Below the pieces are notes generated by a model. It did no database searches. It was not told the origin of the DNA and was given only the letters and a program-made list of their open reading frames with translations. A stretch of DNA of 64,000 bases, from assembly GCA_902795355.1 (NCBI GenBank), contig CADBKZ010000003.1, positions 37,516 to 101,515 on the forward strand, written 5' to 3'. Positions within the stretch are counted from its first letter, which is position 1, and each line of letters starts with the position of its first letter. This stretch comes from an uncultured Ruminococcus sp. GTDB lineage: Bacteria; Bacillota; Clostridia; Oscillospirales; CAG-272. The translations under genes and the position numbers were made by a program. Positions 19,303-58,756 of this stretch are shown here, in pieces.

Positions 19303-19635
19303 TTACCGAACCGCTTTTGCAAGATCTTCCGCCGCTTTCCGGACCTCGCTGCCGACCGCTTCCGCATCCAACAGCGAAAGCAACCGCTCGGCGCACTTCT
19401 GCGTTTGCTCGAAGCGCGCGGCAAGGCCCAGCTTTTCTTCGAGGAACCGAAGCTCCTCCCCCGCTTTTCCGATCAGCTCCCGAACCGCCTGACGGCTGAC
19501 CCCGAGCTCTTCCGCGATCTCCGCGAGGGAGAGATCGTCGTTATAATAATAATCCAAAACGGTGCGTTTGCGTTCGGAGAGCACGTCTCCGTAAAAATCG
19601 AGCAAAAAGCCGATTTTCAAATCCTTTTCAAACAT
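19303..19635 (-). CDS. ylxM: YlxM-family DNA-binding protein
   Basis: LLDFYG...YYNDDLSLAEIAE...SRQAV; upstream of ffh. Confidence 0.93.
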   Translation of the reverse strand: MFEKDLKIGFLLDFYGDVLSERKRTVLDYYYNDDLSLAEIAEELGVSRQAVRELIGKAGEELRFLEEKLGLAARFEQTQKCAERLLSLLDAEAVGSEVRKAAEDLAKAVR

Positions 19636-19652
19636 TTCGCGCACCTCGCAGC

Positions 19653-19705
19653 TGTAAAGCAAAACGCTTTACACATATTGTATCACGTTTCATCCGGTTT
19701 GTCAA
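19653..19705 (-). promoter_or_regulatory. ylxM-ffh promoter with downstream palindrome
   Basis: TTGACA (19700-19705), 17 bp, TACAAT (19677-19682); TGTAAAGC-N5-GCTTTACA at 19653-19673. Confidence 0.75.
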
Positions 19706-20285
19706 GTGTTTTTTGATTTTTCTTCCCGTTTTTTTCGTTTGGCAGGAATTTTTCCCGCAAACGGCAGAGCAGGCCCGAGAGCGGGCGGAACAGGAGCGGA
19801 AACACAACCGCGTTGCATGCGATTTGAACCACATAGAACCATGTTCCCCGCAGATAATAAATGCGGAACCGCCGCCAGAAATCGGTCAGAAAGCCCGTAA
19901 ACAACCCAACATCCACCAAAGAGGTCAGAACGCCGAACCAAACGGTGAGCGCAACGGCAACCGCCGTTAAAACAACGCGATTGCGCACATTCCGCTTTCC
20001 CAACAGCATGAAAACAAAAGCCACAAACGGCCAATACAAATAATAGGACAGCACCCATGTATTGTACCCGTAAATCAATGGCTCTATGGTAACGAATATA
20101 ACGGCCGACAGCACGCCCGACCAGCCGAAGCAATAGCCGAACAGGGCTGTCAGAAGCGTAACGCCCTCAACATTCGGCAGGAACGCAAGGGCGAGTTTAA
20201 CGGCTTCGATCAGCGCGGCGCAGATCCCCGTCAGGGCAATCCGGAAGATTACGCCGCGCGTTGCGGATCGTTTGGAAATCATCAA
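19683..20285 (-). CDS. ECF transporter S component (CbrT-like, probably cobalamin)
   Basis: Hydrophobic ~200 aa with LPNVEGVT motif; downstream of a B12 riboswitch. Confidence 0.75.
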   Translation of the reverse strand: MMISKRSATRGVIFRIALTGICAALIEAVKLALAFLPNVEGVTLLTALFGYCFGWSGVLSAVIFVTIEPLIYGYNTWVLSYYLYWPFVAFVFMLLGKRNVRNRVVLTAVAVALTVWFGVLTSLVDVGLFTGFLTDFWRRFRIYYLRGTWFYVVQIACNAVVFPLLFRPLSGLLCRLREKFLPNEKNGKKNQKTLDKPDET

Positions 20286-20752
20286 TAGGAAGAGAGGGCG
20301 ATGTAGTACACCGCGCCGTTCTCAACGGTCATGGAAGAGGCGCCGAGGCCGGACGTTACCACCTTGGTTCCCTTGTATTCCTTTTCGGTTTTGTATTCCG
20401 AAACGTCAAAGTCCTTCTCCACGGAGGTCATCAGCAGGATAAAGCCGTTGCTCACCGCGGTGGCATCCAGCGAGAGAACTTTGGTCAGGTAAGCTCCGTA
20501 GGTACTGTCTACCATTTCGTAGGTAAAGTCTTTTTCATTCTCTTTCAGGTATTCAAGAATGGAAACCAAGCCTTGATCGACCGTTACTTTATCCAGATCG
20601 ACCTTATACTCGGTTGCGGGATCGGTTGCTACAACCACGGTGCAGTAGCCGTTGACGTTCTGCGTTTTCTTGCAGGACGCGAACGGGATTACCACCATGC
20701 AGAGAACGAGGATCAGGGTGAGCAGTCTTGCAGTGTTTTTCGTGCGTTTCAT
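20282..20752 (-). CDS. Lipoprotein, DUF4430/transcobalamin-like
   Basis: Lipobox FASC, STYGAYLTKV, GASSMTV; first gene after the riboswitch. Confidence 0.65.
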   Translation of the reverse strand: MKRTKNTARLLTLILVLCMVVIPFASCKKTQNVNGYCTVVVATDPATEYKVDLDKVTVDQGLVSILEYLKENEKDFTYEMVDSTYGAYLTKVLSLDATAVSNGFILLMTSVEKDFDVSEYKTEKEYKGTKVVTSGLGASSMTVENGAVYYIALSSY

Positions 20753-20802
20753 GTTGTTTCTCCTTGCTTTTTCGGGAAATTTATCGTAACTCCGAACACA
20801 AG

Positions 20803-20839
20803 GAAAAAACCTCTTTCAAAACGCCGTTTCGAAAGAGGG
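20803..20839 (-). terminator. Riboswitch expression-platform terminator
   Basis: CCTCTTTC...GAAAGAGG stem followed by TTTTTT on the minus strand. Confidence 0.65.
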
Positions 20840-20930
20840 GGACGCCGAAAAAGCAGACCCCTGCCCTGCGGGTTCCGCGATTCGCACGACCTGTATCCCC
20901 CTATTGTCCGGAAATACCGATCCAACCAAA

Positions 20931-21081
20931 CAACACGGCAGGTCTTCCGACTTGCGGCGCGCCCGCGCGCCTGATCCGCCCCCTTTGCGGGTCGGATTTT
21001 CTTACGGTAATGACTGTTGCCTCGGCTTTGCACCGAAATTTCCCTGTTGATCAGCCGGCGATCTTTGCTGAACCCGTGTTG
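20931..21081 (-). promoter_or_regulatory. Cobalamin riboswitch
   Basis: Minus strand AACAGGGAA..CGGTGCAAAGCCG..ACCGTAA..AAGTCGGAAGACCTGCC (B12 box); P1 CAACACGG/CCGTGTTG. Confidence 0.9.
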
Positions 21082-21158
21082 CCTATGAAATTGTTACTTC
21101 TATCTTACCACATTTTCCCCGAAATAGCAAGAGTTTCGGGGAAAATATTCGAAAAAAA

Positions 21159-21551
21159 TCAGAAAAGGACGGTTTTCGGCGCGGCCGTGAAGGACGCAAC
21201 GGTCACTTTTCCGCTTTCCAGCGCGAAAATTTCGGTGTTGCCGTCGCCCGCCCGATACATGGCTTTCAGCTCGGGGTAGGCATTCAGCATATGCTCCTGC
21301 GCCGCAACGCGGGGATCCTCTTTGGCAACGGCTTCCACGCGGATCCACTCCGCGCCGTTGAACGCGCAGATCTCAATTTTTGGGTTGGCATGGATCTGAC
21401 GGGAGACCTCTTTTGATTTGCCCGTTTGAATCGTCAATTTGCCGTCGAACAGGTCGATGGTTCCGAACGGGCGGACGCGCGGTTGGTCTCCGTCCGCCGT
21501 TGCAAGGTAGTACGCCCCGCATTTTTTGAGAAATTCATAGATTTCGTTCAT
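21159..21551 (-). CDS. Pyridoxamine 5'-phosphate oxidase-like / NimC-NimA family protein
   Basis: YYLATADGDQPRVRPFG...NPKIEIC...WIR. Confidence 0.85.
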   Translation of the reverse strand: MNEIYEFLKKCGAYYLATADGDQPRVRPFGTIDLFDGKLTIQTGKSKEVSRQIHANPKIEICAFNGAEWIRVEAVAKEDPRVAAQEHMLNAYPELKAMYRAGDGNTEIFALESGKVTVASFTAAPKTVLF

Positions 21552-48294: not shown

Positions 48295-48334
48295 AAAAAA
48301 ACGGTCGCCCCGCCGGATTTTCCGGCGGGGCGAC
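48295..48334 (-). terminator. Original ppdK terminator, displaced by the element
   Basis: GC-rich stem 48304-48317/48321-48334 with a T7 tract, 25 bp after the displaced ppdK stop. Confidence 0.8.
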
Positions 48335-48358
48335 TACTTTTTGCTTTTATCGGTTCAA

Positions 48359-48379
48359 TCAGCCTTTCAGGGCTGCCTG
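48359..48379 (-). other. Displaced native ppdK 3' end / attachment site
   Basis: CAG GCA GCC CTG AAA GGC TGA (QAALKG*) shares the CAGGC core with ppdK at 55780-55784. Confidence 0.8.
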
Positions 48380-49492
48380 TGAAGTACTCCCCGTTGAAAT
48401 GCGTTTTTACCAACTTCTTCAACTTCCGTGAAGTACTGATTATGAAAAAAAGTAGGTAACACCTCATTATCCTGAATGCTTTTTACATCCAACGATAATG
48501 TATTTTTCCTTCCGACTATCGAACAAAAAGTTTGGTGATAATTCTCGTCGTCAAGTGTAAGATACCAACTGAAGCGCCTTCCGTCTTCCTCGGCAACGAT
48601 TGCCGCGACAAGCTCTTCGATAATCTCTTTTGGAACTTTTCCTTCTTTAAACGTGGTCAGCTGATTCAGCCTTGACTCTATTCTATTTAGATCGATAATT
48701 GTTCTTGTTTCAATTTTATCATTATCTGCGACAGAAGTTAAGTCTTTTTGAATTGAAGCTATCTCTTTCTCACATTTCTCTTTTAAAACCAAATATTCGT
48801 CTTTCCCTATCTCTCCATCTGCTCTCATACAGATAAGATTATTCAGTCTGCCCTTTGCTCTTTCAAGTTTTCCTTCTAACCCTGCAATCTCTTCTTTGGA
48901 AACAGCAGTGTCTGAAACATAATTCCTGTTAACCATATCGTATGCTTGTAAAACGGCATCTTTCTTGTCAGTCCATATCCTACTAAAAATCGATGAAGCC
49001 ATAACATCAAACTTCCAATCGCAAACCATGTGACCATCACAGTATCCTTCCGGATCAAGACCGTTTTCTATACGCTTCGTTCGTGTGCCGTTATTGACCG
49101 CATTATAGCATCTATATCCATAAGACCAAGTTCCATCTTTCCGTTGATGCCATCTGTTCTTACGGAATTTTGAGCCGCAGACACATCTTAATTTGTGCAA
49201 AAAAGGATCGTCAGTTTGTTTTTTACCAATATTACGTGTTCTGCCATTCAGGTTTGTATATTTCAGCGATTTACTTCTTCTGAGTTCGTTACAATAATTC
49301 CAAAGCTCCTCAGACACGATTGGCTCAAAATCTCCTTTGATATAGAGATATGAGTTCTCATCGAGGTTTTTGATCCTCTTTTGATCAAGGTAATTATTGC
49401 AGAATGATTTCAAATAGCATTTATATCCTTTATAAGTTGCATTTCTTAAAATCCGACTGACTTTAGAGCAAGACCAATTCACATTTCCTATC
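48367..49492 (-). pseudogene. Large serine recombinase, 5'-truncated (catalytic domain missing)
   Basis: WSCSKVSRILRNATYKG, EPIVSEELW, zinc ribbon CVCG...YRC...C and coiled coil; no N-terminal resolvase domain or RBS. Confidence 0.85.
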
Positions 49493-50068
49493 CCGCTTGA
49501 TCGCCTGAATGCTTTCGTTCTCCAAGCTGTCTTTGACCGCGTTCAATTTTTCAAACAGGTCGCCCGAAAACTTGTCGAGCGTTACGGGACGGTCGATTTT
49601 CACAATCTCCGCGGACTGCGTTCCGTCCAAGAGCTTCAAAGCGTTTGCGAGGTATTCGATGTCGATGTTCTGTTGTATCACGTCCTCGATGCCGAAATTC
49701 TTTTGCCCGATCTTGATCACTCTTCCGTGGAAGCCGTTGTTGTAGTCGATCAGACCGTTATCCTTGACGTCTTTCAGCCCGAAAAGGCTTTCGACTCGTT
49801 CTTTTTCTTTGCTTGCCGTTTTTGTGTATTGCTTTTTAGCGAAAATAAATCGCACGTTTTCAAACAGGATCGAATATAAAATCCCGTCCTGCGTGGGCAT
49901 GAACATCACGACTGCGGCAAGCCCCATTATGACTGCTATCGCCCACTTCCCTGCGGTAATGCTGACAAAGATAATTGCAAACACGATCAGCGCGACGATG
50001 ATGTCCTTCATCGAATAGCATTTCCACACGGTGTTTTTGACTTTGATTTTTTTCGGAATGATCCTCAT
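49463..50068 (-). pseudogene. N-terminal fragment of a PrgI/VirB4-type conjugation ATPase
   Basis: MRIIPKK, two TM helices, IVKIDRP; cut at ~49490 before any Walker motif; follows a VirB6-like gene. Confidence 0.6.
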
Positions 50069-50092
50069 TTTATTCCTCTTTTTTAAAAATAT

Positions 50093-50133
50093 TGTACGAA
50101 ACCGTTGACAAATTCGTACATAAATGATATAAT
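50093..50133 (+). promoter_or_regulatory. TA operon promoter with operator inverted repeat
   Basis: TTGACA (50105) -17- TATAAT (50128); TGTACGAA/TTCGTACA flank the -35. Confidence 0.8.
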
Positions 50134-50168
50134 AATAGTGCATAATAAGGCAAAGGAGGTGCCATGCC

Positions 50169-50384
50169 ATGTCCATTACTGCAACTGAGCTGAAAGAAAA
50201 TTTGAGTAAATACCTTCTTCTTTCAGTTACACAGGACATTTTCATCACAAAAAACGGAAAGGTGATTTCCAAGCTCACTAACCCTTTTCAGAACAGAGTC
50301 GATATTGCAAAATCCTTATTTGGCTCAGTTCCGGATACCGTCTCTTTAGAAGAAACGAAACGTGAGAGGATTGAAAATCTATGA
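50169..50384 (+). CDS. Phd/YefM-family antitoxin
   Basis: ITATELKENLSKYL...IFITKNGK. Confidence 0.9.
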   Translation: MSITATELKENLSKYLLLSVTQDIFITKNGKVISKLTNPFQNRVDIAKSLFGSVPDTVSLEETKRERIENL

Positions 50385-50803
50385 GAGCTTTGATTGACAC
50401 CTGCGTAATCATTGACGCGCTTCAGGACAGAAAGCCATTCTCTGATGACAGCAAGCAGATTTTCCTTCATGCAGCAAACAACATTTTTGGCGGCTTTATC
50501 ACAGCAAAATCCGTAACCGACATTTATTATCTAATCCACAAAACAACTCATGACAATGTAAAAACGAGAGAAATTATCAATAAGTTGTTTTCCTTGTTTG
50601 ACATTCTGGATACCACAGGAATGGATTGTAAAAAAGCAATCCTTTCGGATACTCCTGATTATGAAGACGCGGTGATGATTGAATCTGCTTTGCGCGATGA
50701 ACTTGACTGTATCGTCACCAGAAATGAACGTGATTATGGAAAATCCCCTGTAAAAATCTATTCCCCGAAGCAATTTATTGAACTGCTTTCCCAAGATCTG
50801 TGA
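50381..50803 (+). CDS. PIN-domain (VapC-like) toxin
   Basis: LIDTCVIID...DYEDAV...IVTRNERDY; ATGA-coupled to the antitoxin. Confidence 0.9.
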   Translation: MRALIDTCVIIDALQDRKPFSDDSKQIFLHAANNIFGGFITAKSVTDIYYLIHKTTHDNVKTREIINKLFSLFDILDTTGMDCKKAILSDTPDYEDAVMIESALRDELDCIVTRNERDYGKSPVKIYSPKQFIELLSQDL

Positions 50804-50834
50804 TCTTTGCCCCTCGATTTCGAGGGGCTTTCTT

Positions 50835-52016
50835 TTATACAGTCAGACCTTCTTTATCCGTGCTTTCGCTTTTCTCCTCAACGTATTTTTCATTACTGTC
50901 ATTTTTGCTCCCGCCATCGCCCTTTCCTTTATGATGATGTGCCGCGTGAGACGCGCCACGGATCAGTTTGGTCGCCGCACCGATTGTCATCGCGCTGGCA
51001 ATTCTTCCGCCGTAGAACGCGCTCCGTAAAAAGCCTCCGCCTGCGTGCATATCGTCTGCCTGACCGAACAGTCTCGCAAACAGATGTTGCCCCGCCGGGA
51101 TCATCATTGCGCCGCCGATAATCATAAAGATTAAAAACAGCCCATTCCCGAACCCGGATATACCGTCAATCTTCATCTTCGTTATGATCGGCAGCAAAAG
51201 AATAAAGACGTTGACTGAGAACACTGCGCCGTAAGCAAGCACGATCTTCGTGATGAACGATTCTCTCCATACCTTAAACCGTGCGCCGTCGTCAAGCGGC
51301 AACGTTGACATTGAAACGGGCATGACGATATACAAGAAAATGATCTCGTACACGCGCTTTGCCAGATTCAAGACCGCCACAAGAAGCGAAATCATCACGC
51401 CGACAGACGCAACAAGCGACGGAACGTATAAAAATTTGTCGGGGTTAATCATGCCGGTATTCTGCCAATCAACAGGCCAGATACCGAACGCCGCCGTGCT
51501 GTAATCGCCCATAATTTCTCTGACGGTCAAGGTTGATACGTCCGCTTCCGCGATGGAATAGCCGTTGATCCAACCGTCGCCAACGCAAGCATTGAAAAGC
51601 GCGTTCGAGAGTTTCGTTGTGTTTTCGATCTGGAAGATCCTCGACACCAGAACGAGAACCGAGTTGGAAATCAGAATTCCCAAGACGACCACCGCGAGCA
51701 TTGCCATCGTACCGAGAAGCGCCAAAAAGAACTTCCCGACGATCGTGGAAAGATTGCGGTTGTTCGCGATCATATTCTTGATGATCGCCGCTATCGTGAA
51801 AATAGCCGTCAGCCCTACCGCCAAGATAAACACGCACCAGAAGATAGTCCCGACCGACGTTTGCGCCGCCAAGTGTTCGATGATGTTGACTTTCTGACCG
51901 TGGTACGTCACGTCCGTTACGCCTGCGACTGCCGAGAAGATCTCCATCAAGCCGTCACACAATCGCAAGAGCCATAGAAACAGCTGCAATACGATTTCCT
52001 GTAAAAAAATAATCAT
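50835..52016 (-). CDS. ICE transmembrane protein (VirB6-like)
   Basis: Multi-TM, KRVYEIIFLY...PLDDGARFKVWRE; lies between pilin-like and VirB4-like genes. Confidence 0.7.
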   Translation of the reverse strand: MIIFLQEIVLQLFLWLLRLCDGLMEIFSAVAGVTDVTYHGQKVNIIEHLAAQTSVGTIFWCVFILAVGLTAIFTIAAIIKNMIANNRNLSTIVGKFFLALLGTMAMLAVVVLGILISNSVLVLVSRIFQIENTTKLSNALFNACVGDGWINGYSIAEADVSTLTVREIMGDYSTAAFGIWPVDWQNTGMINPDKFLYVPSLVASVGVMISLLVAVLNLAKRVYEIIFLYIVMPVSMSTLPLDDGARFKVWRESFITKIVLAYGAVFSVNVFILLLPIITKMKIDGISGFGNGLFLIFMIIGGAMMIPAGQHLFARLFGQADDMHAGGGFLRSAFYGGRIASAMTIGAATKLIRGASHAAHHHKGKGDGGSKNDSNEKYVEEKSESTDKEGLTV

Positions 52017-52032
52017 TTTCCTGTTCTCTCCT

Positions 52033-52875
52033 CTATACCGCCCAAACGCTCAATCCTTTTATGAGAAGCGGTAAACCGACCGCAAAAACGAACATGACAA
52101 GAATGCCGATGACAAGGTGTTTCACCATTTCCTTTGCGTTGATTTTCTCTTCGTTCTTTTTCGCGATTGCAACGCGGATGCCGATATATGCGCCCCAGAC
52201 GATCACGACCGACGCCATACCGATAACGAGATAGATCCAGACGGAATCCACCAGTTCGGAAAGCTTTTCCGTGATTTGCCCGAAGTTGTCCCGCATTCCT
52301 TTCTGTTGCCGCATAAGACCGACGATTTCTTCGTCCGTCATCTCCGACGCGTTCAACGTGTTATAGCAAGCAAACTGCGGCGGCAGGTATGCCGTATTTC
52401 CGTCCGGATCGGTTACGTAAAAAACAAACGTGAAATCGAGACTTGTGTTCTTTTCTAAAATGCCCACGATAGCCGTTCGGAAGATCCTTCCTTCCGGCGC
52501 TTCCCGCGAAGTGCTGCCGACAACGTTCAGGATCGCGACGTTCTGCTCCGCAAACGCGTTCATATAATCGCCGTGAACGTTGAATTTTTCCATGTATTTC
52601 TTCGGAAAGATTGCCGTTCCGTAAGTACATCCGCTGTCATAAACGGTATTCGGAACAAAAAACATTGCCACGATATACCGACCTCTTGTTTCGTTTTCCC
52701 CTTTTCGGTACCCGAAGAAAAACGACTGTTCTATGATTTGTTCGGCTTGCGTTTGATTTTCTTCCGCTTCCGCCGCATAAGCCGTAGTCGGAACTCCAAA
52801 CGCAAACCCGAAGAATAGCGTCAGCGCCATTATGACGCCGAAAAGCGAATACTTTCTGTTTTGTGTTTGTTCCAT
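52033..52875 (-). CDS. Secreted domain fused to a C-terminal pilin-like (VirB2-type) domain
   Basis: Signal peptide AYAA; C-terminus clearly paralogous to 52948-53250. Confidence 0.7.
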   Translation of the reverse strand: MEQTQNRKYSLFGVIMALTLFFGFAFGVPTTAYAAEAEENQTQAEQIIEQSFFFGYRKGENETRGRYIVAMFFVPNTVYDSGCTYGTAIFPKKYMEKFNVHGDYMNAFAEQNVAILNVVGSTSREAPEGRIFRTAIVGILEKNTSLDFTFVFYVTDPDGNTAYLPPQFACYNTLNASEMTDEEIVGLMRQQKGMRDNFGQITEKLSELVDSVWIYLVIGMASVVIVWGAYIGIRVAIAKKNEEKINAKEMVKHLVIGILVMFVFAVGLPLLIKGLSVWAV

Positions 52876-52947
52876 TTTTACCTCTTTTCTAAAAGCCATA
52901 AGGCGGCAGGTTTCCCCACCGCCTTACCCTTTTTTGACGCTTCTTGA

Positions 52948-53250
52948 TTAAGCGCCGATACCCACCCAAGCGGAAAGACCGTTGATGAGAAGCGGTGCGC
53001 CCATTGCGACGACGAAGATGATCACGATACCGATGATGAGGTTCTTCACCATATCACGGGCGTTGATCTTCTCTTCGTTGCGGTGCGCGATGGCGATTTT
53101 AATACCGACATACGCGCCCCAGATCACGACGACTGCCGCAAGCGCCATAACGATGTAAATCCAAAAACTGTCCATCAGGGATTTCAGGCTCGTTACGATC
53201 TGTTCAAGACTTCCGTTGAGAGTGGTTTCTGCCAAAAGATTACTGTTCAT
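52948..53250 (-). CDS. Pilin-like conjugal transfer protein (VirB2-type)
   Basis: 100 aa, two TM helices around NEEKINARDMVKNLIIG; GGAGG RBS. Confidence 0.7.
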   Translation of the reverse strand: MNSNLLAETTLNGSLEQIVTSLKSLMDSFWIYIVMALAAVVVIWGAYVGIKIAIAHRNEEKINARDMVKNLIIGIVIIFVVAMGAPLLINGLSAWVGIGA

Positions 53251-53276
53251 TCTGTTTCACCTCCTTCCTTTTCCGA

Positions 53277-54140
53277 TTAAGCACCTGCTCCACCCCAAGC
53301 GGAAAGACCGTTGATGAAGAGCGGCGCACCCATAGCAACGACAAAGATAATCACAATGCCGATGATGAGGTTCTTGACCATATCTATCACATATTTCACT
53401 TGTTCATCCGTCAAACAAGTATGTAATGGCAAAGTTATCTCGTTAGCAAAATGTGCATAAGCATTGGGATAAGCATTGATGTCGAAGCCAAGCTTCTTAT
53501 ATGCTGTATGCATAGGCAATGGCTTATAATGAACATTACAAGCTATTCCCCTCTCTGCCATTTTTACGATTATCTCTCCACGTTGGTCATAAGAAATATC
53601 AGGAATTCTCGTTATATATAAATGCCCGGACGACTGATGATTTTCGTTATAATGCGGTATTGTTTCAACACCCAGTGGTTTAAACGCATCATCGTATCTT
53701 TCTATTATTTCTTTTCTACGTTTAAGCATTTCGGGGTACCGGACAAACTGTCCAAGACCGATAGCAGCCATAATGTCTGTCATATCCGAATTGTTTACGA
53801 ACCACTCGTTTCTTTTCGTTATTGCCGCCTTATAATGGACGTTGTATAATTCTTGCGGATACCACACCTCATCGTAATATTTTTCCATATCGTCCATATC
53901 GGCAATCGGGTATGGCAGTACGAGAATCAGAGAGTTGTTTGAAGTGCCATAATCTCGTTGCGCCATTTTAATTACCGACGCTACCATAATATCGAACTCG
54001 CCGTTCCTGCCAACGTAGAACTCAACGTACTCTTTTGTCTGGATCAATTCTTTTACAATATCTTCTACCTGCTCTTCGATAAAGCGAAAGTTTTCTACTT
54101 CCCGGTGACCGATAAAAGAAACTCTGTATGTATCAAGCAA
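53277..54140 (-). pseudogene. Tripartite in-frame chimera: SLOG-like N-terminus, DegT/DnrJ aminotransferase C-terminus, pilin C-terminus
   Basis: SFIGHR...KRNEWFVNNSD | MTDIMAAIGLGQ...ITLPLH | MVKNLIIGIVIIF. Confidence 0.8.
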
Positions 54141-54172
54141 TTTATGACCTCCATAGGTGATAAAAACAAAAA

Positions 54173-54211
54173 GGATTTGTTCATCTATTGGTGTAATAGA
54201 TGAACAAATCC
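54173..54211. terminator. 17-bp perfect hairpin (terminator and candidate recombination site)
   Basis: GGATTTGTTCATCTATT-GGTGT-AATAGATGAACAAATCC with T tracts on both strands. Confidence 0.8.
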
Positions 54212-54336
54212 CGTTTTTTAACCATCAAAAAATAAAGATAATGAAAATTTCTCCTTCACTTTCCTTCTTGAACATTGATTTTTCGGTTTCAATATGATAT
54301 AATCTTGGTAGTGATAATCCCCTATTACACCAATAG
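54185..54336. repeat. 15-bp inverted repeat pair flanking a promoter
   Basis: CTATTGGTGTAATAG (54185-54199) and CTATTACACCAATAG (54322-54336). Confidence 0.85.
54275..54303 (+). promoter_or_regulatory. Sigma-A promoter within the candidate invertible segment
   Basis: TTGATT-17-TATAAT with extended TG. Confidence 0.7.
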
Positions 54337-54345
54337 GTGGTAATA

Positions 54346-55275
54346 TTAAAGCAGCTTTCCAAGCCGATTCATCATCTCTTTTTTGTGTTCCATTAAAGAG
54401 TGAACGTAACGATTCAACGTTACTGTCGGAGACTTGTGTCCAAGAATATCGGATAACGTTTTAACATCCATACCGCACTCCAACGCGCTTGTTGCGAAAG
54501 TGTGCCGAAGTGAGTGAAATCCCCTGTGGGGGATTTTTAGTTTTCTCTGCAACAAATCGAAACTGCGTTGATACGATCTGACAGACAGCGGGTTTGCATT
54601 TTTTGAAACGACAAACTCCGACCTGCTTTTCTTTCTCGCTTCCTTGATAAACGGTAATAATTGCCGTGGCAAAGGGATCACTCTCCGCGACGAGGAGGTT
54701 TTCGGCGTATCCTCAAACCTTACGTAATGACCGAACCGATCTTTCCCATCGTGACAGGATTTTGAAACAGTCAGAATCCCTTTCTGCAAGTCAATATCTT
54801 CCCACTTCAAAGCAAGCAGTTCGCCAACACGAAGTCCGGTATAAAGGCAGAGCAATATTCCGAACATCTTGTCTTTTTTACTGTTCAATACCGCTTGCTC
54901 GATCTGCTTTTGTTCCTGTGTCGTAAAGCAATTTACGGCTTTTTCTTGTGCTTTCGGGCGCTTGATTCTGTCTGCCGTAAACTCTTTCACGTAGCCAAGA
55001 TTAAACGCTGTTCTGAGCGAATTCTGAACGACGTTTATAATGCCGCCGACTGAATTAGCCGACAACCCTTTCCCCGTTTTCAAATTCCCGGACTGCAATA
55101 GTTCGGTTATGTAATGTTGCAGAACACCCGGCGTTATCTCGTCTAACTCGTAATCGCCAAGTCTGGGTATAATATGTTGCTTAATGATCTCCGAATACCT
55201 GCTGAACGTTCTTGTTTTCGCCGTCGGCTCGATATAATTCTCAAGCCATTCTTTTAACCATTCGTGATACTTCAT
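54346..55275 (-). CDS. Tyrosine recombinase/integrase
   Basis: SAM-like N-terminus; catalytic set GLRVGE, TPKT, HSLRH, LGH, RYVH intact. Confidence 0.93.
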   Translation of the reverse strand: MKYHEWLKEWLENYIEPTAKTRTFSRYSEIIKQHIIPRLGDYELDEITPGVLQHYITELLQSGNLKTGKGLSANSVGGIINVVQNSLRTAFNLGYVKEFTADRIKRPKAQEKAVNCFTTQEQKQIEQAVLNSKKDKMFGILLCLYTGLRVGELLALKWEDIDLQKGILTVSKSCHDGKDRFGHYVRFEDTPKTSSSRRVIPLPRQLLPFIKEARKKSRSEFVVSKNANPLSVRSYQRSFDLLQRKLKIPHRGFHSLRHTFATSALECGMDVKTLSDILGHKSPTVTLNRYVHSLMEHKKEMMNRLGKLL

Positions 55276-55379
55276 TTTTGTTCTCCTATTCCCTTTCTTT
55301 TTTTATAAAAAAATGCTGTACGAAAAAACTTCATACAGCATTAATAAAAAATATATGTAATTGTAAATATCCGAACGCC

Positions 55380-55535
55380 TTATTTGCCGTCCGTTTTCAT
55401 TTTTGATTTTAAGATTTTGACATCAAACTCATATTGCTCTTTTGTTAAAAGTTTTTTCTCAAAAAAGATCCTTAACGTTTCTAACTGTTTTTCAAGCAAA
55501 TATTGATTGTTTATAATCTTATCTTCGCTTTTCAT
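55380..55535 (-). CDS. Small SHOCT-like protein (51 aa)
   Basis: Hand translation MKSEDK...QLETLRIFFEKKLLTKEQYEFDV...; GAGG RBS and own TATAAT. Confidence 0.6.
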   Translation of the reverse strand: MKSEDKIINNQYLLEKQLETLRIFFEKKLLTKEQYEFDVKILKSKMKTDGK

Positions 55536-55590
55536 AGTATTCCTCACTTAAATATTATATCATATAGAAACATAAAAGTAAAGTAAAGGA

Positions 55591-55621
55591 AAGCCGCCAT
55601 ATCAATCCGATATGGCGGCTT
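55591..55621 (-). terminator. Element-borne terminator now serving ppdK
   Basis: AAGCCGCCATATC/GATATGGCGGCTT stem with a T-rich tail on the minus strand. Confidence 0.8.
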
Positions 55622-55627
55622 AGTGTT

Positions 55628-55780
55628 TCATAGATATACATCAACAAATATTTCTTCCCATTGAGATTCTCGCGTTAGGACATTCAAATATTTGCGACGA
55701 TACTGTTTGGCTTCTTCAAAGGAAATCGAGAACGACCAAAACGGTTTATTATTTGTTCTCCTCGCTTTGTTTAATAGCAG
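55628..55780 (-). other. Detached 50-codon C-terminal segment of the serine recombinase
   Basis: Open frame LLLNKARR...FEEAKQYRRK...QWEEIFVDVYL* in frame with the recombinase across the CAGGC core. Confidence 0.7.
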
Positions 55781-58397
55781 CCTGCGCCGCGGCCAATCTT
55801 GCAATCGGAACGCGGTAGGGCGAGCAGGAAACGTAATCCAAACCGATTTCATGGCAGAACTCAACCGAGGTCGGGTCGCCGCCGTGCTCACCGCAGATAC
55901 CGCAGGAGAGTCCGGGACGGGCTTCACGGCCGAGCGTAACCGCCATCTTCATCAGCTTGCCGACGCCGATCTGGTCGAGCTTGGCAAACGGATCGTTTTC
56001 GTAGATCTTCGCGTCGTAGTACGCGCCGAGGAACTTGCCCGCGTCGTCGCGGCTGAAACCGAACGTCATCTGGGTCAGGTCGTTGGTGCCGAAGCAGAAG
56101 AACTCCGCCTCTTTCGCGATCTCATCCGCGGTCAGAGCGGCGCGCGGAATCTCGATCATGGTGCCAACCTGATATTTCAGGTTGCTCTTGGCGGCGGCGA
56201 TTTCCTCGTCGGCCACCTTTACCACAACGTTCTTGACGTATTTCAGTTCCTTGACCTCGCCAACCAGCGGAATCATGATCTCCGGCTCCACATTCCAATC
56301 GGGATGCGCCTTCTTGGTGTTGATGGCCGCGCGAATAACCGCTCTGGTTTGCATAGCGGCGATTTCAGGATAGGTGACGGCCAGACGGCAGCCGCGATGG
56401 CCCATCATCGGGTTGAATTCATGGAGACCCGCGATGATCGCCTTGATCTTTTCAACCGGCTTGTTCTGCGCCTTGGCCAGAAGCTCGATGTCCTCTTCGG
56501 TGGTGGGAACAAATTCATGGAGCGGCGGATCGAGAAAACGGATTACCACGGGATAGCCTTCGAGCGCTTCATAGAGCTTCTCGAAGTCGCCCTGCTGCAT
56601 GGGCAGGATCTTGGCCAGAGCCGCTTCTCTCTCCTCAACGGTGTCGGAGCAGATCATCTCGCGGAACGCGGCGATGCGGTCCGGCTCGAAGAACATATGC
56701 TCGGTGCGGCAAAGGCCGATTCCCTCGGCGCCCAGCTCGCGGGCTTTCTTCGCGTCGCGGGGCGTGTCGGCGTTGGTGCGCACTTTGAGCTTGCGGTATT
56801 TATCCGCCCAGCCCATGATGCGGCCGAAGTTGCCGCCGATGGTGGCGTCAACGGTTGCGATGGCCTCGCCGTAAATGTTACCGGTGGAGCCGTCGATGGA
56901 GATCACGTCGCCCTCGTGGAAGGTCTTGCCCGCCAGCGTGAACTTCTTGTTCTCTTCATCCATTACAATGTCGCCGCATCCCGAAACGCAGCAGGTACCC
57001 ATACCGCGGGCAACCACGGCCGCGTGCGAGGTCATACCGCCGCGAACGGTCAGAATGCCCTGCGCCGCTTTCATGCCGGTAATGTCCTCGGGCGAGGTTT
57101 CGAGACGGACGAGGATCACCTTCTTGCCGGCTTTCTTCCAAGCCTCGGCATCGTCGGCGGTGAACACGATCTGCCCGCAGGCAGCCCCGGGAGAAGCTCC
57201 GAGACCGCGGCCGAGCGGCTTCGCGGCTTTGAGAGCCTTTGCGTCGAACTGCGGGTGCAGGAGCGTATCAAGGTTGCGGGGATCAATCATCAGAACCGCT
57301 TCCTTCTCGGTCCGCATGCCCTCGTCAACAAGGTCGCAGGCAATCTGGAGCGCGGCCTGCGCGGTTCTCTTGCCGTTGCGGCATTGGAGCATGTAGAGCT
57401 TGCCGTTCTCAACGGTGAACTCCATATCCTGCATGTCGCGGTAGCGGTTTTCGAGAATGCCGCAAACTTCCACGAACTGTTTGTAAGCGTCGGGGAACTG
57501 CTTCTCCATCTGCGCGATGGGCATCGGGGTGCGAACGCCTGCAACAACGTCCTCGCCCTGCGCGTTGACCAAGAACTCGCCCATCAGCTTCTTTTCGCCG
57601 GTGGCGGGGTCACGGGTGAACGCAACGCCGGTGCCGGAATTGTTATTCAGGTTGCCGAACACCATGGGCATAACGTTAACGGCGGTGCCCCAAGAGTACG
57701 GAATGTCGTTATCGCGGCGGTATACGTTGGCGCGGGGGTTGTCCCAAGAGCGGAACACCGCGCGGATCGCTTCGTAGAGCTGTTCTTTCGGATCGCTCGG
57801 GAAATCCTTGCCGAGCTGTTTCTTATATTCGGCCTTGAACTCGATGGCAAGCTCTTTGAGGTCGGCGGCGGTGAGTTCCACGTCGAACTTCACGCCCTTC
57901 TTCTCTTTCATCGCGTCAATCAGCTGCTCGAAATACTTCTTGCCCACTTCCATAACCACATCCGAGAACATCTGGATGAAGCGGCGGTAGGAGTCGTAAA
58001 CGAAACGCTCGAACGCGGGATCGGGGTTGCCCTTGATCATTGCGGCAACAACCTCGTCGTTCAAACCGAGGTTCAGAATGGTGTCCATCATTCCGGGCAT
58101 GGAAGCGCGCGCGCCGGAACGAACCGAAACGAGCAGCGGGTTTTTCAGGTCGCCGAACTTCTTGCCGTTGATCTCCTCCATTTTCTCAACGTTCTTCATG
58201 ATCTCCGCCATGATTTCATCGTTGATCTTTCTGCCGTCCTCGTAATACTGCGTGCAGGCCTCGGTGGAAATCGTAAAGCCCTGCGGAACGGGCAGACCGA
58301 TCTTGGTCATTTCCGCGAGGTTTGCGCCCTTGCCGCCGAGCAGTTCGCGCATGTTGGCGTCGCCTTCGGTAAAGAGATAGCAATACTTCTTTGCCAT
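55749..58397 (-). CDS. ppdK: Pyruvate, phosphate dikinase
   Basis: LLGGKGANLAEM, GGMTSHAAVVARG, GTNDLTQ, CGEHGG. Confidence 0.98.
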   Translation of the reverse strand: MAKKYCYLFTEGDANMRELLGGKGANLAEMTKIGLPVPQGFTISTEACTQYYEDGRKINDEIMAEIMKNVEKMEEINGKKFGDLKNPLLVSVRSGARASMPGMMDTILNLGLNDEVVAAMIKGNPDPAFERFVYDSYRRFIQMFSDVVMEVGKKYFEQLIDAMKEKKGVKFDVELTAADLKELAIEFKAEYKKQLGKDFPSDPKEQLYEAIRAVFRSWDNPRANVYRRDNDIPYSWGTAVNVMPMVFGNLNNNSGTGVAFTRDPATGEKKLMGEFLVNAQGEDVVAGVRTPMPIAQMEKQFPDAYKQFVEVCGILENRYRDMQDMEFTVENGKLYMLQCRNGKRTAQAALQIACDLVDEGMRTEKEAVLMIDPRNLDTLLHPQFDAKALKAAKPLGRGLGASPGAACGQIVFTADDAEAWKKAGKKVILVRLETSPEDITGMKAAQGILTVRGGMTSHAAVVARGMGTCCVSGCGDIVMDEENKKFTLAGKTFHEGDVISIDGSTGNIYGEAIATVDATIGGNFGRIMGWADKYRKLKVRTNADTPRDAKKARELGAEGIGLCRTEHMFFEPDRIAAFREMICSDTVEEREAALAKILPMQQGDFEKLYEALEGYPVVIRFLDPPLHEFVPTTEEDIELLAKAQNKPVEKIKAIIAGLHEFNPMMGHRGCRLAVTYPEIAAMQTRAVIRAAINTKKAHPDWNVEPEIMIPLVGEVKELKYVKNVVVKVADEEIAAAKSNLKYQVGTMIEIPRAALTADEIAKEAEFFCFGTNDLTQMTFGFSRDDAGKFLGAYYDAKIYENDPFAKLDQIGVGKLMKMAVTLGREARPGLSCGICGEHGGDPTSVEFCHEIGLDYVSCSPYRVPIARLAAAQAAIKQSEENK

Positions 58398-58756
58398 GTT
58401 TGGTAATCCTCCAAAATTTGTTTTTTCTTTGACATGATACTCCAAAGGCACACCGAAAAGACGTTCCATCGTTGTTCCATGTCACATACGTTTGATATTA
58501 TACCATATTTTTTGTTTTTTTTCCATACTTTTACAGGCAGAAACCGCCCTCAAAAATGTAAACATTCTGTGAACGGCAAAAAAACCCCCGTTTCCGTTTG
58601 ACAAAACGGCATTTTTATAGTATAATAATGGAGCAATGTCGGATACCGTCCGTGCGGCGGATCTCGTCGGCTCCCCGTTTCCGAACGGGGGGGCGCGGCG
58701 CGGTCGGGCGCCTTTTCGCGTATCCCCCGCTTTTCGGAAGGAGTTTTTCCCTTTTT

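Follow-up and report, generated by a model that had tools for sequence, protein, structure and literature searches.

In a 64,000-nucleotide stretch of DNA from an uncultured Ruminococcus sp. (contig CADBKZ010000003.1, positions 37,516 to 101,515; here called the window), a 7405-bp element of low G+C content (42.8%, against 55.9% in its flanks) is inserted in the last codons of ppdK, the host gene encoding pyruvate phosphate dikinase. The remnant of a large serine recombinase (LSR) gene lies at one end of the element and a frame of 50 codons lies at the other, both on the minus strand. The best explanation of our data, which we consider probable, is that the element is a decayed representative of an LSR-driven integrative family found in gut Clostridia, whose members carry the recombination core inside the open reading frame (ORF) of their own recombinase. 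An earlier note, made from the sequence alone, had placed the attachment site within the recombinase gene, and the window borders, the relatives and a joined protein, P0307, all agree with that placement. The same note held that integration removes a C-terminal module of the enzyme, with the pieces in frame at the rebuilt junction; P0307 and three further elements (L092, L113 and L062) bear this out, and the module is conserved.

The only sequence common to both window borders is CAGGC, present at 48375..48379 on the recombinase side of the junction and at 55780..55784 on the ppdK side (both read from the sequence, minus strand). At the left border, the recombinase ORF ends in CTT CAC AGG CAG CCC TGA, or ...GVLHR followed by QP and a stop codon (48367-48369). 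At the right border, the frame beginning cgc AGG CTG CTA TTA AAC... is open for 50 codons (55780-55631) and closes with a stop codon at 55630-55628; a terminator-like hairpin of 14 pairs (55591..55621, minus strand) lies 7 nt past it. Because the AGG (Arg) codon stands in equal phase in both border frames, a join at the core is in frame. The 50 codons and stop (55628..55780, minus strand; LLLNKARRTNNKPFWSFSISFEEAKQYRRKYLNVLTRESQWEEIFVDVYL) are the orphan C-terminal module of the recombinase, and within the window's own genome they match the module profile with E = 5.2e-24. By itself, a 50-codon ORF is weak evidence, since an open run of that length from a given position has a chance of ~5% in shuffled element sequence, and homology is needed to decide.

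The earlier note did not mention ppdK as the host gene. The gene now occupies 55749..58469 on the minus strand (PF02896, PF01326 and PF00391). In our reading of the frames, its original last codons, CAG GCA GCC CTG AAA GGC TGA (QAALKG and a stop codon), are found at 48359..48379 (minus strand), where they include the left core copy and form the host (B') arm, and the hairpin and T-run that ended the original ppdK transcript (GTCGCCCCGCCGG...CCGGCGGGGCGAC, then T8; approximately 48300..48340, minus strand) are now downstream of the element. The gene's new end comes from the element: AIKQSEENK and two stop codons (55749..55777, minus strand), read in the -1 frame relative to the module and also forming the P' arm; similar replacement ends are supplied by the L092 and L113 elements, as translated by hand. 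Uninterrupted ppdK 3' ends in the loci of 16 relatives read ...AAAQ(A/S)(A/N)(L/I).. and reach a stop codon within a few codons, followed by non-element sequence, and those of same-genus relatives end in ...AAAQAALK and a stop codon, with CAGGCAGCTCTGAAG; these uninterrupted ends place the insertion point in the last ppdK codons. Of 18 loci inspected, at least 6 encode the orphan module in the +1 frame relative to the 3' end of ppdK. This 3' end is a recurrent target. The ~30 bp at 55749-55780 of the window are thus read in two frames, as the replacement end of ppdK and as recombinase linker, and are a recombination-site arm as well. One candidate for a second insertion, the ppdK end AAINESRGK of genome G016, was rejected as a native end, there being no recombinase and no module match. 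In L022 (G009:C9), just past the ppdK stop codon, the last ~24 bp of ppdK (CTCAGGCTGCTCTTAAGAACTAAT) are repeated ~100 bp downstream, which could be the footprint of an earlier insertion at the same site.

The joined protein that the earlier note had predicted is represented by P0307, which is 87 aa long and encoded at the edge of a 14.7-kb contig. Residues 10-37 of P0307 match residues 342-369 of the window recombinase (23 of 28 identical, 82%), residues 37-87 match the window's orphan frame (48 of 51 identical, 94%), and the two matches meet at one common Arg. Among the best 120 of 627 recombinase homologues, the complete module is contiguous with the enzyme in three (P0011, P0029 and P0050) and partial in one (P0045). 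P0029-type elements are found in Lachnospiraceae isolates from the mouse gut. Nearly all of the remainder of these 120 are ~610 aa long and diverge directly after ...VLH(R/K), or after ...LIAAC in one subfamily, into short unrelated ends.

The same pattern was found when 80 recombinase loci from species-representative genomes were tallied by hand. Complete short LSR genes, with unrelated host-derived ends 0-70 codons past the junction, account for 63 of the 80: 49 are LHR-type genes with 0-70 host-coded residues after HR, and 14 are of the LIAAC type. Two more LHR-type genes run off their contigs just past the junction. Four loci are long forms (L070, L076 and L125, together with L074, which runs off its contig), four are of an unsplit type in which the gene keeps its module (L101, L126, L127 and L128), and seven are unassessable (L054, L072, L079, L080, L082, L084 and L122). 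In draft genomes the two ends can mostly not be paired, with tail and recombinase on different contigs; both ends were nevertheless found on one contig, on one strand and in frame in the window (7405 bp), L092 (6229 bp; recombinase 5'-truncated, lacking residues 1-51), L113 (6960 bp) and L062 (~10.1 kb), where LIAACAER is in frame at both ends. Across the family, sizes range from 6-10-kb Tn4451-like units to conjugative elements. One cluster of recombinases at 90% identity (P0001, P0364 and P0366) has different ends after VLH, which suggests recent mobility. The unsplit type is also found at the ppdK 3' end, convergent with ppdK and ~110 nt past its stop codon, and in an alignment of the split clade with the unsplit type, the C-terminal domain and the module of the split enzymes are separated by 70-90 additional residues, an insert that contains the junction.

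A second recombinase subfamily, with the C-terminus ...LIAAC (L062:1593-14088, also L059-L073 and L088), harbours the same core within its own gene, on the other DNA strand. At ppdK, a LIAAC-type gene reads antisense into the host gene, such that ...LIAAC followed by AAARRAIGTRKGEQET and a stop codon is the antisense of ppdK ...SCSPFRVPIARLAAAQAA. The L062 core, CTGCACAGGCTGC, encodes LHRL on one strand and AACA on the other, so that one core is found within the genes of both subfamilies, in opposing orientations. The L062 locus is composite: an older LHR-type remnant has received a LIAAC-type element at its recombinase-end core. A contig from gut-run data (X9) joins L062 positions 1592 and 14089 at the outer cores, with 0 mismatches and 2 shared letters, and is the empty ppdK site. 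The two letters fit either side of the join; few bases are thus common at the crossover, as in LSR attachment sites. The gut-run data are assembled contigs, a material in which rare circles are beyond reach, and stretches of L062 left uncovered in some runs carry no weight.

Homologues of the module are numerous. A profile of long-form tails matched 105 proteins in a word-indexed search; by inspection, about two dozen are recombinases with a contiguous module, at least 11 are contig-edge fragments of long forms, and ~70 are ORFs with unrelated sequence ahead of an almost identical module. Pfam domains of host genes found upstream of orphan modules include PF02896, PF00106, PF09588, PF00270, PF04143, PF03601 and PF00817, and one near-identical module type is preceded by at least 10 unrelated upstream sequences; in every case the module starts at the recombinase junction residue. 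A wider, index-free search with a profile of 24 tails taken from the loci yielded 514 protein clusters at E <= 0.001, of which 235 reached E <= 1e-10. Among the best 150 of these 514, the module mostly ends short orphan ORFs that begin with unrelated sequence: 146 of the proteins fall below 300 aa, and in 141 the module comes to within 7 residues of the C-terminus. The ratio of orphan to long forms among module clusters is biased against the latter, because long and short recombinases cluster together at 50% identity. Within the window's order, 21 of 401 genomes have module matches. The search for homologues of the peptide for which the earlier note had called was therefore productive, and the split recurs across relatives.

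The note had also asked whether dN/dS (ratio of nonsynonymous to synonymous substitution rates) is below 1 for the orphan segment, and our estimates, made from the module's 40 core codons that lie past the site arm, range from 0.046 to 0.29. The window and L092 modules gave 0.18 (dS 0.77), L032 and L062 gave 0.046, L031 and L029 gave 0.14, and the L040-L043 group gave 0.19-0.29; several near-identical pairs differ by synonymous changes only. By these values, purifying selection acts on the orphan module.

An AlphaFold2 (AF2) model of the long form P0029, built on a 70-row alignment, has a mean predicted local distance difference test (pLDDT) score of 73 and contains the usual LSR parts; long helices span residues 382-486, and residues 521-561 form a small sheet domain. 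For the linker with the junction (564-609) the pLDDT is below 50, and the module is modelled as a strand (608-614), a helix (617-626) and a second strand (640-646) at pLDDT ~57-68. A 110-aa fragment of the unsplit type (mean pLDDT 59.5) is modelled with the same strand-helix-strand order. The module has no evident named relative: a Foldseek search of this 110-aa C-terminal model against the PDB gave no match at E <= 0.001, the module profile matched no PDB sequence, and Pfam found no family past approximately residue 480 of the long forms, with no DUF4368 (which was included) or other family over the C-terminal 170 residues. In the ESM Atlas, P0029 residues 490-648 led to unnamed clusters only, with one DUF4368 lead (19% of members). 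Prediction of a complex between P0029 residues 599-648 and 320-598 returned 'no answer', with a score of 0.00.

The core (...CAC AGG C...) falls within a linker modelled with low confidence, which connects the enzyme body (...VLHR) to a strand-helix-strand module of 45-50 residues. Insertion leaves the body at one end of the element, reading 0-70 codons into host DNA, and the module and terminator at the opposite end, and at ppdK the first codons of the module, read in another frame, provide the new end of the host gene. From this topology it follows that integrated copies can encode the short form only and the attP junction the long form only. If an integrated copy can encode only the short enzyme, then excision from the chromosome would fall to the short form, whether or not a helper (TnpV, for example) takes part, and if a circle or newly arrived copy encodes the long enzyme, then integration into a new host would be carried out by the long form. 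The module might accordingly serve the circular or integration stage, for example in binding attP or attB, in synapsis or in restraining re-excision, such that the state of the element sets the form of the enzyme; we offer this tentatively, as a possibility with the balance somewhat against it. A more specific proposal, which we regard as doubtful, makes the module an intrinsic determinant of direction: the long form would act in, or be restricted to, attP x attB recombination, the short form would carry out attL x attR recombination, topology would set the direction instead of or besides a separate factor, and the arrangement would have evolved twice on opposite strands of one core, in the LHR and LIAAC types.

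Several findings weigh against this reading of the family and of its module. Half of the 10 orphan-module genomes that we checked, all of them draft assemblies (82-100% complete), contain no LSR-family gene at E <= 1e-30, and only two (G387 and G354) have a close family relative (>= 50% identical). Joined forms are rare, at 4 of the 80 genome loci and none of 10 window-type loci on metagenome contigs queried with P0307 (8 orphan tails, 1 recombinase end and 1 weak match), and 11 short contigs, including those of the long forms L074, L076 and L125, showed no terminal overlap in a circular-contig test. The long form of L070 lies in a 276-kb contig, at the junction of two element halves and not in a circle. 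The short forms tolerate any host-coded end of 0-70 residues, and the module could be dispensable. The unsplit sisters L101, L126 and L128 keep the module while integrated at the same ppdK site; the module is thus not in itself incompatible with the integrated state. In L113, a TnpV gene (PF14198, E = 5.5e-31) lies directly after the module, which counts against a simple switch, and both AF2 models are of moderate confidence. The suggestion of the earlier note that the module replaces a separate recombination directionality factor (RDF) found no support, given the TnpV gene of the intact L113 and the unsplit relatives. ParB is also present in L113, and Pfam scans detected no TnpV in the window or L092.

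The L070 locus (L070:1-21947) looks like an accretion of two elements. On one side of the long gene is the right end of a conjugative element (lysozyme/CHAP and PemK) and on the other is a left end (DUF6075, ParA, ParB, RepA_N and DUF3801), and the recombinase body is 95% identical to P0029 with a different tail. The simplest reading of this arrangement is that an insertion beside the orphan tail of another element remade a long gene with a foreign module, in which case long forms would also arise without excision. We rejected a simple tandem of recombinases at this locus, as the second large ORF is the reverse transcriptase of a group II intron (19575-21521).

Alternatively, the attachment site may merely overlap the 3' part of the recombinase gene, an arrangement that links gene and site, with the module having a general role or none and the two forms acting alike. 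The tolerance of host-coded ends of any length and sequence after ...LHR, the predicted disorder of the linker around the core, the presence of the module in both states of the unsplit relatives and the exchange of tails between elements (L070 and P0029) are all consistent with such an overlap, and passages of a review of archaeal integrases present an attachment site within the gene as a compact, exchangeable module (PMC8371274). An indifferent end piece, however, would be expected to decay where it is missing from the enzyme throughout the integrated phase, whereas purifying selection is seen on 40 codons beyond the ~25-bp site arm, and the module is conserved over 514 clusters and several recombinase subfamilies. 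We consider a purely neutral overlap unlikely.

A second alternative is that integration is suicidal, as for the archaeal SSV-type elements that give it a precedent (described in parts of PMC8371274): the short form would be inactive, integrated copies would be dead ends, and the family would spread through replicating circles or plasmids that carry the long gene. Many copies do appear to be relics, as expected if integration is often a dead end; orphan modules without a nearby recombinase are frequent, the window, L092 and the inner remnant of L062 are decayed, and RepA_N, ParA and ParB are found on L070-type elements. Integration removes only the last ~50 of ~650 residues, however, and in 63 of 80 loci the catalytic part, the DNA-binding part and the coiled coil are all still intact. 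Near-identical recombinases have different host-coded ends, and one identical module occurs in at least 10 unrelated contexts, which points to frequent moves that are easiest to explain if integrated copies can leave. We regard suicidal integration as improbable.

It is very improbable that the orphan module is a separate small protein, made from a host transcript or as a fusion to a host protein and acting in trans as an RDF-like factor or modifier of host proteins. Called ORFs do place the module after host-gene sequence (PF00106, PF09588, PF00270, PF04143 and PF00817), and the module, lying promoter-distal to a strongly expressed gene such as ppdK, would be transcribed along with it. The window module, however, is in the +1 frame of ppdK, which stops inside it; the upstream sequences are heterogeneous, the ppdK cases are alternative-frame read-through with no conserved start, and the start of the module is always at the recombinase junction residue. 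That the 50-codon frame is a chance opening and its in-frame join a coincidence, for all that the shuffles allow one at ~5% per position, is refuted by homologues with E values down to 1e-24, by the joined P0307 and by dN/dS below 0.3.

The preferred reading, a family with the core inside its own recombinase gene, bears similarity to known clostridial elements. Like TnpX of Tn4451, TndX of Tn5397 and the multi-targeting clade of clostridial LSRs, the enzymes described here combine Resolvase and Recombinase domains with a Cys-rich, putative zinc-ribbon region, a long coiled coil and an additional domain at the C-terminus. The elements resemble those of clostridial LSRs in being hosted by Clostridia, in comprising small units with TnpV and ParB (L113) and larger ones with conjugation genes, and in the many targets of some subfamilies. 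The best solved match is 3g13, the catalytic domain of a 'putative conjugative transposon recombinase' (E = 9e-34), and TnpX (2mhc) matches over the catalytic domain only (E = 2e-4). In Tn4451, the state-dependent feature is a promoter for tnpX that forms at the joint. In the family described here the core lies inside the recombinase ORF, and the C-terminus depends on the state of the element, an arrangement for which our literature search turned up no report in the TnpX/TndX group.

Loss of the end of a protein by integration has parallels in phages. In mycobacteriophage repressors, the removed C-terminal part acts as a degradation tag. The comparison with integration-dependent immunity drawn by the earlier note is a fair analogy, not one of membership. 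In the temperate actinophages concerned, attP lies inside the repressor gene, integration takes away the C-terminus of a phage protein, and its cut and full versions act differently. There, however, it is the repressor that is shortened, by a small part, and integration is by a tyrosine enzyme, whereas here the recombinase itself is cut and the removed part is a conserved, folded-looking module. According to passages of the CyranoPS preprint (10.64898/2026.10.29.762952), integration costs the repressor 15 residues and makes it more protective. Among integrases, the SSV-type tyrosine enzymes of archaeal viruses and plasmids also have the attachment site within the recombinase ORF; passages of PMC8371274 describe how integration partitions the gene and the circle restores it, and term this suicidal type exclusive to Archaea. 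The family described here differs in using a serine enzyme and in losing the last 45-50 residues only, with the known functional domains kept together, whereas the SSV split parts the N-terminal piece from the catalytic part and inactivates the enzyme. In RAP44-like phages of Riemerella, according to sections of PMC12169736, attP is at the 3' end of a tyrosine integrase gene and a 43-bp residual piece lies at the other prophage end, a case that its authors call aberrant fragmentation in one phage group; ORF13 of phiRSS0, described in passages of PMC3816273, is a further precedent. Those phages thus combine a tyrosine integrase with a 43-bp leftover, unlike the serine recombinase and conserved domain here.

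In engineered integrase-RDF fusions, a polypeptide on the C-terminus of an LSR changes which pair of sites is recombined, and SprA-YotN fusions have PDB entries (9dxd, for example). Such fusions are artificial and favour excision, whereas the module is natural and restricted to the one form that cannot be responsible for excision. Our search of the literature found no description of an LSR gene cut by its own attachment site; passages of PMC10083194 mention filters on the distance between LSR and site and no overlap with coding sequence, and its Supplementary Table 1, on these distances, may already list such cases. A known enzyme family and a known idea, an attachment site inside a gene, are thus combined in a way that we did not find in print, and the combination is widespread in gut Clostridia.

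A natural family with a state-dependent C-terminus provides a testable model for control of direction that is free of, or assisted by, a separate factor. For the insertion of large DNA, LSRs are the principal tools, and it is normally a separate factor that decides their direction. For this clade, catalogues built from integrated copies record a short enzyme with a meaningless host-coded end and miss the native module, and hundreds of small 'hypothetical' ORFs beside ppdK and other genes are the missing ends of recombinases. The ~35-bp stretch that combines site arm, recombinase linker and replacement end of an essential host gene illustrates how an element can insert into the final codons of a conserved gene and do it no harm.

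The window copy itself is a relic without a catalytic domain, as the earlier note had recognized. Its recombinase gene (48367..49482, minus strand) is a 371-aa ORF with a Recombinase domain (PF07508, E = 3.7e-9, covering profile positions 39-100), a Cys-rich and coiled-coil region and the C-terminal domain. Against P0001, a relative of 610 aa, the match is confined to residues 227-605, at 74% identity. For the zinc-ribbon, PF13408 stayed below the cut-off (E = 0.009), and four Cys (C327, C329, C352 and C375 of P0029) do not vary in the alignments of the family. A Pfam scan found no Resolvase domain (PF00239) in the window recombinase, and the relatives L113, P0029 and P0138 have one (E ~1e-30), which identifies the window gene as an LSR remnant. 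The 3' end of a 202-aa membrane-protein ORF with no Pfam family (49463..50071, minus strand) abuts the remnant and marks the internal deletion of the 5' part of the recombinase gene. In L085, homologues of the window's internal genes lie several kb upstream of an intact recombinase, an arrangement indicating that the window copy is a deletion derivative of a larger element. The copy has lost recombinase residues 1-226 through internal deletion and is immobile on its own.

The rest of the cargo is mixed. A Phd/YefM-like antitoxin and a PIN-domain (VapC-like) toxin form a pair on the plus strand at 50169..50803 (PF02604, E = 3.9e-4, below the cut-off; PF13470, E = 4.3e-23). Three membrane-protein genes follow on the minus strand (50835..53250), two of them with weak matches to type IV secretion pilins (PF18895, E ~3e-5, just below the cut-off); segments are common to L085, and the genes are the remains of a conjugation module. 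At 53277..54140 (minus strand), a chimeric ORF joins a C-terminal fragment of a DegT aminotransferase (PF01041, E = 1.6e-25, residues 111-255) to a second copy of the pilin-like C-terminus, its last 34 aa repeating those of ORF 52948..53250, which suggests insertion into a second copy of the pilin gene. A complete-looking tyrosine integrase gene (54346..55275, minus strand; PF00589, E = 4.8e-29, and PF14659) lies inside the element, near the orphan module and not at the border, and may derive from a nested or captured element. Four other serine-recombinase-like genes are present in the window's genome, G000 (contigs C4, C7, C9 and C2; L002-L005), at 26-33% identity to P0001, and none of the four belongs to the split-recombinase family. 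Finally, the 103-aa protein P0206 consists of ...VQHR, the first 40 residues of a window-type module and the last 60 residues of the 393-aa membrane protein encoded by ORF 50835..52016, and is a deletion variant of a related element at an attP-like junction.

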